Assembly: GCF_000757865.1 (NCBI RefSeq)
Contig: NZ_CP007754.1
Coordinates: 960,001 to 992,000, forward strand
Length of the DNA stretch: 32,000 bases
DNA from: Prochlorococcus sp. MIT 0801
GTDB taxonomy: Bacteria > Cyanobacteriota > Cyanobacteriia > PCC-6307 > Cyanobiaceae
Direction of reading: 5' to 3'
Of this stretch, positions 29,221 to 31,898 are shown in pieces. The first letter of the stretch is position 1, and every line of letters begins with the position of its first letter. The position numbers were made by a program, and so were the translations under genes. The notes below the pieces were generated by a model. It did no database searches and was not told where the DNA came from. It saw only the letters and a program-made list of their open reading frames with translations.

Positions 29221-29234
29221 AAAAAAAAAAAAAA
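29221..29234. repeat. A14 homopolymer running into the ATG of the 117-aa ORF
   Basis: Counted directly: 14 consecutive A at 29221-29234. The last A is the A of the ATG at 29234. Confidence 0.9.
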
Positions 29235-29587
29235 TGGATGAACTTACTTATAAGGATCTGAGCAACAACGAATTAGACACCCTTAAAGATATGTATATAT
29301 CAAGTCGAGTTAACTCTATGACCGAGGATGATCTAAGGAATTTTGTTAAGGAAATTATTATCGATCAGATTAAAGGCACTGTAGGTAATGCTGAGGAGAA
29401 GGAAGCATGGGAAGAAATAAAAGATCATTTCTCAGAGGACTTAAGTAAAAAAATTCTTGAAGTGAAAGAAAAATGCAATAAAAATCCTAAAGTAGAACAA
29501 AAAAGTCAGGAAGATATTGAATTTGAGAGAAGACTTGGTCTTTTAAAACAACAACAAGAAGAGGAGTCAAGCAAAGACATGTGGTAA
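29234..29587 (+). CDS. 117-aa acidic hypothetical protein
   Basis: ATG start. Highly charged helical sequence (EEKEAWEEIKDHFSEDL...QQQEEESSKDMW). Confidence 0.5.
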   Translation: MDELTYKDLSNNELDTLKDMYISSRVNSMTEDDLRNFVKEIIIDQIKGTVGNAEEKEAWEEIKDHFSEDLSKKILEVKEKCNKNPKVEQKSQEDIEFERRLGLLKQQQEEESSKDMW

Positions 29588-29644: not shown

Positions 29645-30187
29645 TTAATATAAAAGATACGTATACATCCGAAATAAGAAAGAAAACAAAGTAAAAACAA
29701 TAAATCTTGTGGATCTATATTTTAATTCATTCAGAAAACTTAAATATTTGCCGGATTGAGAGAATAAAGAAATAAATGCGAGTCCAAATGAAATCCTCTC
29801 AAGCCAAAAAAGTGACCGAAATATAGCTTTATTTAAATCATTAATATTTAAGGATATAAATACCAATATAAGAATAAAAATTAATGATAATAATAATATT
29901 GATTTGATGAAAATCTCTAATATTATACTAAAGGGGTAATTAAGTTTGGAAATTCTTTGTTTTATCTCTTTAAGATGAGTATTTTCTAAACGAAAATACT
30001 CCGTTTGAGGAATCCTAAACTTTTTATACCGATAATGTAACTCTCTTTCTAATTTAACATAATCAACGGTATACAATTTAGCTACAACATTATCTGGCTT
30101 GAGTTGTCTCATCCTATTCTCAAAGTTTTTTGTAATTCCAATCTTATATAAGTCTCTATTTCTTATTAAGTAAAGCCAACCACTCAT
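29645..30187 (-). CDS. T5orf172/MUG113-type GIY-YIG-like domain protein with three C-terminal transmembrane helices
   Basis: 180 aa with ATG start. GWLYLIRNRDLYKIGITKNFENRMRQL...LERELHYRYKKFRIPQTEYFRL matches the T5orf172 pattern (G.vYi.....yKIG.T.....R...L....E..lH..f...r...EwF). It is followed by the hydrophobic helices IILEIFIKSILLLSLIFILILVFISL, ISFGLAFISLFS and FIVFTLFSFLF. Confidence 0.75.
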   Translation of the reverse strand: MSGWLYLIRNRDLYKIGITKNFENRMRQLKPDNVVAKLYTVDYVKLERELHYRYKKFRIPQTEYFRLENTHLKEIKQRISKLNYPFSIILEIFIKSILLLSLIFILILVFISLNINDLNKAIFRSLFWLERISFGLAFISLFSQSGKYLSFLNELKYRSTRFIVFTLFSFLFRMYTYLLY

Positions 30188-30227
30188 ATTAATTTAAACT
30201 CTTTCGTATTCAAGATTAATGAGTAAG

Positions 30228-31520
30228 TTATGCCGCCTCATTTTTTCTAATTGAGTTAAATTTTTCTCTCATAGTAGGATTATTTCTGGTCAATCGTTTA
30301 ACCGAAACATCTTGAGCTTTATCATTAGCTAACCTAAGATTTCTATCAGCACCAAGTAAAGCATCTTTGGTTTTTTGCAAGTGATTAATAGATTTATCAA
30401 TCTCCATAATTGCTGTTTCAAAGCGTTTTGACGCTAGCGTATAATTTTTACCAAACGAATCCTTAAATAATTCAAGGCTATTTTCAAAATTTGTGATATC
30501 AATATTCTGCTCCTTAATAGCAGCTAGTTCTGATTTATACGCAAGCGCCTTATGTGAAGCGTTCCTCAATAAAGAAATTATTGGTAAAAAACATTGGGGA
30601 CGAACAACATACATTTTTGGATAACGATATGAAAAGTCAACAATTCCAGAATTAAACAAATCATTGTCAGATTCTAATAAAGAAACTAAAACAGCATATT
30701 CGCAATTTTTTTCAATGCGATCTTTATTTAACTCTTTAAGAAAGTCCTCATTTTTCTTCTTACTAGAAGTGCTATCACATTCATTTTTCATTTCAAACAT
30801 AATAGATACGATTTCGTTCCCTTCACTATCACAGTCACGGAAGATATAATCACCTTTACTACCAAAACTAGAATCATTATCTTTGTCAAAATATGCATTA
30901 GGAAAGGCTGTAGCCCGTAGTCGATTAAATTCATTCTCACAATGTTGCTCAAGTGACTCGCCAACCATTTTTGTAGATAATTTTATTTTCATATCACGAA
31001 GTCTCTCAATTAAATCATCTCGTTCTTTTAACTGAATCTCATATCTCATTTTTATAGAATTTTCAGACAATTCATTTTGAAGCTCAACTTTATCTAAATT
31101 ATTTTTGATTTTTTCATACCCTTCTCTTAATTCAGAAATTGCTTCAGAAACTGCAAGTTTTTTTTCATATTCATTCTTTTCTCTAGTTTTCTCCAATAAA
31201 AACTCAAGTGAATCTCTCTCTTTTTCGAAGGTATGTTTGATTTTATTCACAGTCATAGTCTTATCAGTCTGAGCAGCCATCAACTGAGTATGAAGGTCTT
31301 GCATTTTTTTTTCATTTACTAATGCTGCCTCTTGCATTTGTAATCGAATATTTTGAATAGCAAGCTCAACGGATTTCTGTTTATCCTTTTCAAGAAGTTC
31401 AAGCCTTTTGTTCATTTCATCCTCAAACTCCTCATCTCTTACCTGCTTAATAATGTTTGAGTAATTATCTTCATCAATATTTATAGTGCTACCACATTCA
31501 GGACATTTGATTTCATTCAT
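30228..31520 (-). CDS. DUF2130-family protein: CPxCG knuckle, long coiled coil, C-terminal restriction-endonuclease-like (PD-(D/E)xK-like) domain
   Basis: The track ORF starts at a TTG (31544); the ATG at 31520 gives [33 protein letters not shown]..., the typical DUF2130 N-terminus. C-terminal blocks: [76 protein letters not shown], and QNIDITNFE...[10 protein letters not shown]...LRLANDKA. Confidence 0.85.
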
Positions 31521-31664
31521 ATCTGAATTAGAGAGACAAACCAACTATCTACCCTTTTTATCTGTTTTCACACCCACAAGCAAGAATTATGTTAAACCCA
31601 AAAACCAACTATAAAAAGGAAGAGGTTAGGACTTGAAATTTAGAGAAAACAAAATCTTCTTTTA

Positions 31665-31898
31665 TTATTCTTTAGATCTTGGATAAATTCCAGACAAATC
31701 ACCTTTATTTGCCTTAATGGCAGAAGATTTCCATTCATACCATTTTTTATTTCTTGAATAGTCTTCATCTTCCCAAATCTGATTTTGAAATATCAAGATC
31801 CCACAAAGTATGAAAAAGATGAGGGCACCCAAAATGATATGCCAATCGATCATTATTGATGCATTTGAATAACGAACGTAGGCAATGATTTTCATCAA
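31665..31898 (-). CDS. 77-aa single-pass membrane protein (hypothetical)
   Basis: ATG starts at M1, M2 and M16. Helix WHIILGALIFFILCGILIF followed by a Trp/Lys-rich tail. Confidence 0.45.
   Translation of the reverse strand: MMKIIAYVRYSNASIMIDWHIILGALIFFILCGILIFQNQIWEDEDYSRNKKWYEWKSSAIKANKGDLSGIYPRSKE

Follow-up and report, generated by a model that had tools for sequence, protein, structure and literature searches.

SNIPE (Saxton et al., Nature 2026) is a membrane-bound, anti-phage GIY-YIG nuclease that cuts phage DNA during injection (PMC13190303). The protein combines a transmembrane (TM) segment, a coiled-coil domain (DUF4041) that binds DNA, and the GIY-YIG nuclease; its anchor prevents self-cleavage, anchor removal leads to host toxicity, and it protects directly rather than by abortive infection (PMC13190303). 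Among SNIPE homologs, the nuclease domain is conserved, whereas the membrane-targeting region is highly variable (PMC13190303). Here, we analyze two adjacent genes of Prochlorococcus sp. MIT 0801, a strain placed among the low-light clade I (LLI) genomes (supplement, PMC6370341). One encodes a DUF2130 protein, and the other encodes a T5orf172 domain followed by predicted membrane helices (T5orf172-TM). They lie in a 32,000-nucleotide stretch of contig NZ_CP007754.1 (positions 960,001 to 992,000), referred to below as the window, and both proteins are 100% identical to MIT 0801 proteins, EW15_1119 (DUF2130) and EW15_1118 (T5orf172-TM). The reading that we tentatively favor is that the pair forms a two-nuclease module at the membrane and targets incoming DNA, SNIPE-like but split over two proteins and fixed in its lineage.

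Both domain families were already known. T5orf172 is a domain type characteristic of phage homing endonucleases (PMC10448857), and ICP1 Odn/Gp88 is an experimentally characterized T5orf172 nuclease (PMC8263062); the statement in an initial annotation of the window that neither family has an experimentally defined role is therefore correct for DUF2130 but not for T5orf172. DUF2130 (COG4487) is family 109, of unknown function and with inter-phylum transfers, in the 2012 PD-(D/E)xK survey of Steczkiewicz et al. (PMC3424549), and its nuclease prediction is thus published. The literature mentioning DUF2130 does not address its function, and the mentions in papers on Anabaena surface proteins and Granulicatella vesicles are weak or incidental. 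Undescribed in the literature searched are the strict pairing of DUF2130 with a putatively membrane-anchored T5orf172 protein, the operon of DUF2130 with an OLD gene and its other defense-type partnerships, and the resemblance of the pair to a split SNIPE.

The two genes and their spacer are listed below. Ratios of nonsynonymous to synonymous substitution (dN/dS) are pairwise NG86 values throughout and are approximate, since dS is near saturation.

29645..30187, minus strand: T5orf172-TM gene (EW15_1118), an open reading frame (ORF) of 180 amino acids (aa) with Pfam matches and 180-aa homologs; dN/dS, 0.34
30188..30227, no strand: intergenic spacer of 40 bp, with a purine-rich GAAAGAG before the second ATG; 16 to 88 bp in 70 metagenome contigs
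30228..31520, minus strand: DUF2130 gene (EW15_1119), 430 aa from the ATG at 31520, with a Pfam DUF2130 match; dN/dS, 0.08

Comparison of the pair with SNIPE and other described systems

SNIPE has its counterpart here in a predicted membrane anchor, a long helix (presumably a coiled coil), and a nuclease of the GIY-YIG superfamily that would face the cytoplasm. The two also share a pattern of constraint, as the nuclease domain of T5orf172-TM has a dN/dS of 0.20 versus 0.53 for its membrane half. In contrast with SNIPE, where an N-terminal TM segment, DUF4041, and a C-terminal nuclease make up one polypeptide, the window pair consists of two genes. Its GIY-YIG-type nuclease is N-terminal and the anchor, probably multi-pass, is C-terminal, while the coiled coil is carried by a separate protein with a second, PD-(D/E)xK-type core. 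No match to DUF4041 was found in either window protein at E ≤ 0.1 (Pfam). Membership in the SNIPE family was rejected, given the absence of DUF4041, the reversed domain order, and the distribution of the elements over two genes.

The ICP1/PLE nucleases (Odn/Gp88 and CapR) have a T5orf172 domain with GIY-YIG-type catalytic residues, as does the window protein, and the NRMRQL stretch of the latter (its predicted first helix) is without His or Tyr, as in Gp88. However, Odn/Gp88 and CapR are soluble and fused to sequence-specific DNA-binding domains, whereas the window domain is fused to membrane helices only, and hence no DNA-recognition domain is apparent in T5orf172-TM.

The DUF2130 protein is a full-length member of DUF2130/COG4487, with the CPxCG knuckle, the coiled coil, the nuclease core, and the C-terminal helices. 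The gene is followed by T5orf172-TM in Prochlorococcus only; elsewhere, it stands alone or with OLD, HerA and a methylase, SMODS, or other partners. RmuC shares the overall plan, with the PD-(D/E)xK core placed after a coiled coil, and belongs to the same superfamily (PMC3424549), but DUF2130 differs in its CxxC knuckle, its C-terminal helical hairpin, and its lack of an N-terminal membrane segment. The RmuC-like architecture that had been suggested thus holds for the overall plan but does not extend to sequence or profile similarity. Membership in RmuC (PF02646) was rejected because Pfam gave no match at E ≤ 0.1 and hhalign against Escherichia coli RmuC returned a probability of 0.2% (E = 0.26). 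The two-gene OLD systems (P2 Old, Gabija GajA/GajB, and PARIS AriA/AriB) are a further point of reference, as DUF2130 is elsewhere the coupled second gene after an OLD-type nuclease. Unlike those systems, the window has no OLD gene, and by neighbor joining the Prochlorococcus DUF2130 clade stands apart from the OLD-linked sequences.

The DUF2130 protein is a predicted PD-(D/E)xK-type nuclease

The mechanically defined ORF (30228-31544, minus strand) encodes 438 aa from a TTG at 31544, and the database proteins identical to it, from Prochlorococcus sp. MIT 0801, are 430 or 438 aa long. Since the homologs all begin with MNEIKCP, the start is probably the ATG at 31520, and residue numbers below refer to the 430-aa form. 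The Pfam DUF2130 (PF09903) match has an E value of 5.1e-86 and a score of 288.6 bits (cutoff, 26.7) and covers profile positions 2 to 255 of 255. The protein can be aligned over its full length with 48 homologs at 41 to 91% identity, and the complete architecture is kept. Its parts are as follows.

31491..31505, minus strand: CPECG knuckle (C6 to G10), with a single CxxC, in a predicted N-terminal beta-hairpin (strands 2-5 and 12-15; AlphaFold2)
30978..31433, minus strand: charged helix of ~150 residues (30-181), the presumed coiled-coil stalk (AlphaFold2; pLDDT mostly 75 to 90)
30594..30962, minus strand: putative PD-(D/E)xK-type core, residues 187-309, terminating in an invariant RPQ (translation and conservation; dN/dS, 0.04)
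30948-30950, minus strand: E191, invariant
30849-30851, minus strand: D224, invariant
30792-30794, minus strand: E243, at least 90% conserved
30786-30788, minus strand: K245, at least 90% conserved
30231..30593, minus strand: C-terminal helical hairpin and terminal helix, residues 310-430 (helices 308-337, 343-411, and 415-429), within the Pfam match; dN/dS, 0.06

In an alignment of 49 diverse homologs, C6, P7, and C9 of the knuckle are invariant, as they also are among 62 sequences. Charged side chains account for 43% of residues 26 to 180, a region that contains one Gly but lacks Pro and whose length varies between homologs through indels. Within the core, G187, L190, E191, D214, G223, D224, S239, M241, F242, and M244 are invariant in the 49-sequence alignment. 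The AlphaFold2 model, built from 62 sequences and of moderate confidence (pLDDT, 71.7), shows the knuckle hairpin, an unbroken helix from residue 30 to residue 181, a core formed by a helix, three strands, a helix, and a strand, and then the helical hairpin. The motif residues sit in helix 190-204, strand 224-230, and strand 236-245, as expected for PD-(D/E)xK proteins. The CPECG knuckle, the charged stretch, and the E, D, and ExK residues in nuclease order (including FEMK) had all been picked out in the initial annotation, and each is borne out here, the nuclease motif having been published before (PMC3424549). By its motif, DUF2130 is thus a predicted PD-(D/E)xK-type nuclease.

C6, C9, C194, and C273 are invariant or nearly so across the family, and one His, H193, is conserved. 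This pattern is compatible with a putative metal site to which two subunits, or else the knuckle together with the core, would contribute; with only one CxxC, the motif is not a full zinc ribbon. Searches of PDB sequences with phmmer and hmmsearch returned only coiled-coil noise, and NCBIfam has no model for either the DUF2130 or the T5orf172-TM protein. The family is large: 3,562 DUF2130 clusters (50% identity) were found at E ≤ 0.001 among 1.84 billion cluster representatives. In this search, a single 50%-identity cluster takes in all of the close Prochlorococcus relatives, and those that come next reach no more than 54% identity.

T5orf172-TM couples a GIY-YIG-type domain to a putative membrane anchor

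The GenBank entry for EW15_1118 begins at M26 and has only 155 aa, so that the GIY/YIG half of the domain is lost. We prefer the 180-aa form because it is conserved among homologs. Pfam assigns the N-terminal part to MUG113 (E = 7.1e-16; 59.0 bits versus a cutoff of 22.3) and T5orf172 (E = 8.5e-12; 45.9 bits versus 20).

29942..30187, minus strand: T5orf172/MUG113 domain (GIY-YIG clan), residues 1-82 (Pfam and Foldseek; model pLDDT, 81 to 90)
29999-30001, minus strand: E63 of the T5orf172 domain, invariant
29648..29932, minus strand: hydrophobic C-terminal half, residues 86-180, including the conserved SGKYLSFWNELKYR loop, with one strong and two weaker predicted membrane helices; dN/dS, 0.53

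Residues Y6, Y14, R25, R27, H51, and E63 are invariant in 25 homologs and are kept in the orthologs of L006 and L007, which are 43 to 50% identical. We take Y6, Y14, R25, R27, and E63 to correspond to the GIY-YIG catalytic positions of I-TevI. A Foldseek search of BFVD with the N-terminal model gave 79 matches at E ≤ 0.001 (best E value, 4.3e-6, with a root mean square deviation of 2.3 Å over 88 columns), and the partners are viral T5 Orf172, GIY-YIG, and BRO proteins. The T5orf172 domains found in IMG/VR are only distant, at 32 to 39% identity. Among PADLOC models, only the candidate PDC-S57 matched T5orf172-TM, and it did so weakly (E = 1.9e-6; 25.6 bits) and over the nuclease domain alone (profile positions 8 to 90 of 212).

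Three TM helices had been proposed for the C-terminal half. Three Kyte-Doolittle peaks do recur at similar positions in the orthologs, but only the first is strong (3.07, residues ~86 to 115), the other two being weaker (1.30 and 1.54). The structural model places C-terminal helices at residues 86 to 143 and 151 to 179. Judged by hydropathy, T5orf172-TM is probably membrane anchored and probably multi-pass.

The two genes are strictly linked and under purifying selection in Prochlorococcus

Synteny at the DUF2130 locus extends to five other LLI-type loci, which share a DCC1-like gene and a 77-aa ORF upstream; on the downstream side are a DUF7326 gene in convergent orientation, small ORFs, and trkA. 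The order of DUF2130 followed by T5orf172-TM is present in loci L001 to L004, L006, and L007. A metagenome scan seeded with the T5orf172-TM protein yielded 80 marine contigs, 70 of which were testable (at least 200 bp of upstream sequence). T5orf172-TM lies 16 to 88 bp downstream of DUF2130 in all 70, with T5orf172-TM identities of 45 to 84%, and DUF7326 comes next in nearly all marine contigs.

The initial annotation had described two co-directional minus-strand genes with a 40-bp gap (30188-30227), assigned them to DUF2130 and T5orf172/MUG113, and considered them likely to be cotranscribed. The layout and both family assignments were confirmed, the latter by the Pfam matches given above. No terminator-like hairpin was found in the 40-bp spacer, and together with the short gap and the 70/70 linkage, this supports the view that the two genes probably form an operon, from which we infer cotranscription. 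Chance was ruled out for both ORFs because of their length in DNA of 31% GC content, the E values of their hidden Markov model (HMM) matches, and dN/dS ratios well below 1.

Across the LLI-type loci, identity is 88 to 91% for DUF2130, 87 to 88% for trkA, and 65 to 72% for T5orf172-TM. For comparison with the ratios listed above, dN/dS is 0.11 for both trkA and DUF7326. Both genes of the pair are therefore under purifying selection. The only variation among LLI-type loci is one 417-bp deletion, in the LLI single-cell genome AG-402-B19 (L005 1654-1669), which corresponds to 29795-30211 of the window. In a neighbor-joining tree, the Prochlorococcus DUF2130 sequences make up a single clade. At its base is AG-363-P08, a genome that clusters with the LLVII-grade strain MIT1341. 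This topology is compatible with a single acquisition and subsequent vertical inheritance, during which the partner gene was gained or lost.

DUF2130 has defense-type partners outside Prochlorococcus

A genome scan with the DUF2130 alignment gave 76 non-Prochlorococcus loci among the best 80 matches listed, and IMG/VR added 22 DUF2130 contigs; 97 of these loci have a recognizable DUF2130 ORF. The distribution of DUF2130 is patchy and resembles that produced by horizontal gene transfer, and the Prochlorococcus clade lies amid sequences of other phyla; the best 80 genome matches listed include four Prochlorococcus species clusters and no other cyanobacterium. Among the loci examined, the pairing of DUF2130 with T5orf172-TM is specific to Prochlorococcus. 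The immediate neighbors of DUF2130 are heterogeneous (184 Pfam families in 147 proteins).

In 11 loci, DUF2130 is preceded by a gene for an OLD-family ATPase-TOPRIM protein to which it is translationally coupled, the OLD gene ending 2 bp before DUF2130 or overlapping it by 4 bp in most of the 11. The OLD gene encodes ~630 aa (PADLOC Old, E = 8.7e-58) and in most loci ends at ~7998, with DUF2130 starting from ~8001. These OLD partners match the PADLOC models for Gabija GajA and the PARIS AriA ATPase. The loci comprise five from genomes (L011, L033, L038, L054, and L058) and six IMG/VR contigs (L092, L094, L095, L096, L100, and L104). One of the latter, L092, was checked and is a genuine prophage, with genes for portal, TerL, TerS, ParB, and a methyltransferase.

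Other tight partners of DUF2130 are HerA (DUF87) with an N6/N4 methylase, SMODS with AGS_C (a CBASS-like cyclase), type I HsdR, GmrSD with HNH, and ResIII with a TnsA-like endonuclease. The loci of these non-OLD defense-type partners are as follows.

L018, 5884-11436
L107, 6570-9218
L113, 4528-8879
L079, 6807-9251
L102, 5313-9230

Altogether, a tightly coupled defense-type partner is present in ~17 of the 97 loci, a frequency that is, in our judgment, probably several-fold above that of random gene pairs. The variety of these partners suggests that DUF2130 is a reusable nuclease module employed in several defense contexts.

Neighboring genes

A third co-directional ORF lies upstream of the pair.

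31665..31898, minus strand: 77-aa ORF with one hydrophobic helix, ~145 bp upstream of DUF2130 (ORF, tblastn)

It is found upstream of DUF2130 in 25 Prochlorococcus loci (tblastn; 61 to 100% identity) and was undetected in the most divergent loci. From its position, it may be a third member of the pair.

On the other side, the DUF7326 gene (117 aa; 29234-29587, plus strand) converges on T5orf172-TM, with 57 bp between the stop codons, and its product has a weak PHROG match (phrog_1352, E = 1e-4). The first 13 kb of the window consist of core genes, including dapB and genes for the Mg-chelatase large subunit, a pterin-binding enzyme, and an ABC transporter. No RNA genes were found in the window by Rfam or ARAGORN. 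Some 4.4 to 10 kb past the right end of the window, at 70-760 and 4900-5615 of L002/L003, are two proteins of 200 to 228 aa with weak DNA_ligase_aden matches. The same stretch of L002/L003 has a tandem of five ORFs of 35 to 49 aa, the last with a weak chlorophyll a/b-binding (hli-like) match. The ligase-like proteins and the small-ORF cluster are syntenic across the complete LLI-type genomes examined (L002 to L004).

A possible two-nuclease module and its alternatives

The module that we tentatively favor is suggested by the SNIPE precedent: the anchor, the coiled coil, and the GIY-YIG parts recur, together with the pattern of a conserved nuclease and a variable anchor. A Prochlorococcus-specific operon would encode two predicted DNases at the inner face of the cytoplasmic membrane, and their target would most likely be DNA entering the cell, such as cyanophage genomes at injection. 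The T5orf172 (GIY-YIG-type) domain would be cytoplasmic and tethered to the membrane by the C-terminal helices and so, as in SNIPE, be kept from the chromosome. The DUF2130 protein, elongated and probably dimeric, could supply a second cutting activity or, alternatively, DNA capture and licensing. In this scheme, cotranscription, membrane topology, a physical or functional interaction between the two proteins, their activity as nucleases, and a role against phages are all things that we infer. A defense role for the pair is plausible on circumstantial grounds.

Several observations weigh against this reading. Even with an HMM broadened with viral T5orf172 domains in addition to phmmer, no T5orf172-like ORF was found within ~8 kb of DUF2130 in any of the 97 non-Prochlorococcus loci. 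The family-level co-occurrence anticipated in the initial annotation is thus not seen, and with no T5orf172 partner outside Prochlorococcus, guilt by association with the defense partners of DUF2130 does not transfer to the pair itself. Housekeeping genes are also among the neighbors of DUF2130 (RNase E/G, YchF, ABC transporters, and a sigma-54 activator). No PADLOC model matches DUF2130, and Pfam reveals no known defense gene or integrase within ~10 kb of the locus. No phage origin was detected, tblastn searches of 50,697 phage genomes with DUF2130 and with T5orf172-TM giving no match at 1e-5. Foldseek searches of the PDB found nothing below an E value of 0.06 for the DUF2130 model and no significant match for the T5orf172-TM model.

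The genomic setting and the exceptions to the pairing point the same way. The pair had been placed in an island-like, flexible region, yet the same neighbors recur at L001 to L005 and in the 70 contigs, the window has no tRNA, and no integrase occurs among the Pfam-annotated neighbors. The locus is instead a stable, vertically inherited, lineage-conserved probable operon and not a hypervariable island, with a DUF2130 gene that diverges at the rate of trkA. Such constancy comes close to what the initial annotation had itself named as a sign of core housekeeping. In AG-402-B19, the deletion removes codons 1 to 131 of T5orf172-TM (the nuclease domain and the first membrane helix) and leaves ~150 bp of its 3' end, while DUF2130 is intact. 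In AG-363-P08 (L008 1478-2767), a DUF2130 gene with 65% identity lies in another genomic context and has no T5orf172 partner. Conversely, a T5orf172-TM homolog with 38 to 39% identity (L188 48-590 and L189 197-733) has the same plan of domain and hydrophobic tail, and the 196 bp upstream of it show the end of an unrelated ORF and no DUF2130 3' end. The membrane-anchored nuclease may therefore also exist alone.

The main rival, which we regard as somewhat unlikely, is housekeeping DNA repair or recombination. DUF2130 would then be a structure-specific nuclease on a coiled-coil stalk, similar to RmuC or SbcCD/Rad50, that processes chromosomal intermediates, with T5orf172-TM as an accessory or localization factor. 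The stable synteny, a DUF2130 dN/dS (0.08) lower than that of trkA (0.11), and the lack of mobile-element hallmarks around the locus all fit such a role. The same is true of the coiled-coil and PD-(D/E)xK plan held in common with RmuC and of the several DUF2130 loci that lie amid housekeeping genes elsewhere. The single invariant CxxC capping the long helix also recalls, to our mind, a zinc hook, which we count in favor of repair. However, the similarity to RmuC is undetectable by Pfam (E ≤ 0.1) or hhalign (0.2%), a general repair factor should be more widespread than DUF2130, which among the best 80 genome matches listed is represented in cyanobacteria by four Prochlorococcus clusters alone, and many of the tight partners of DUF2130 elsewhere are defense rather than repair genes.

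The two genes could also be neighbors without functional unity, with T5orf172-TM as a domesticated or formerly selfish gene of the homing-endonuclease type that landed next to DUF2130 in an ancestor and acts alone or hardly at all. The typical occurrence of T5orf172 domains in phage homing endonucleases, with which the PHROG and BFVD matches agree, would be accounted for in this way, as would the restriction of the pairing to Prochlorococcus and the ~4-fold faster evolution of T5orf172-TM relative to DUF2130. Its deletion in one strain with DUF2130 intact and the divergent homolog seemingly without DUF2130 fit as well, and PDC-S57 belongs to an "S" series of PADLOC models that we take to be single-gene candidates. 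We nevertheless find this explanation quite doubtful. The linkage holds in 70 of 70 contigs across a short conserved spacer, with DUF2130 proteins up to 27% different from that of the window; the nuclease domain is constrained (dN/dS, 0.20), with invariant catalytic-type residues; and a membrane anchor is foreign to homing endonucleases.

Finally, an abortive-infection or toxin module, in which a nuclease released or activated on infection would degrade host and phage DNA and kill the cell, is very unlikely: it would fit the two nuclease-like proteins of the pair, the host toxicity of anchorless SNIPE (such enzymes can kill), and the matches of OLD partners elsewhere to the GajA and AriA models, but nothing at the locus resembles an antitoxin or a sensor, the PADLOC models of known Abi systems gave no match, the SNIPE precedent is direct rather than abortive, and the tolerated loss of T5orf172-TM alone implies that DUF2130 is not a toxin restrained by its partner. 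Of the two options first proposed for the locus, defense or abortive infection, defense is plausible through the DUF2130 partners elsewhere and the SNIPE precedent.

Returning to the membrane-associated two-nuclease module, a more far-reaching version would be a new two-protein anti-phage system, a split SNIPE analog in which the membrane-anchored T5orf172 nuclease and a zinc-knuckle, coiled-coil PD-(D/E)xK nuclease would jointly cut cyanophage DNA at the membrane, with DUF2130 more generally an unrecognized defense nuclease module that works with OLD, HerA and a methylase, and CBASS-like cyclases in other bacteria and prophages. We consider this version unlikely as a whole.

Recognizable defense systems were found in only 4 of 17 marine picocyanobacterial strains studied, although picocyanobacteria often stop phages within the cell by mechanisms that are unexplained (PMC6708340). 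As a nuclease pair that is conserved throughout an abundant low-light ecotype of Prochlorococcus, DUF2130 and T5orf172-TM offer a concrete candidate for resistance of this kind. If the repair explanation were true, the pair would serve DNA maintenance in one lineage with a streamlined genome and would be of more modest interest. For the family as a whole, its large size, its lack of a PADLOC model, and its repeated linkage to OLD and other defense genes make DUF2130 a worthwhile target for defense discovery.

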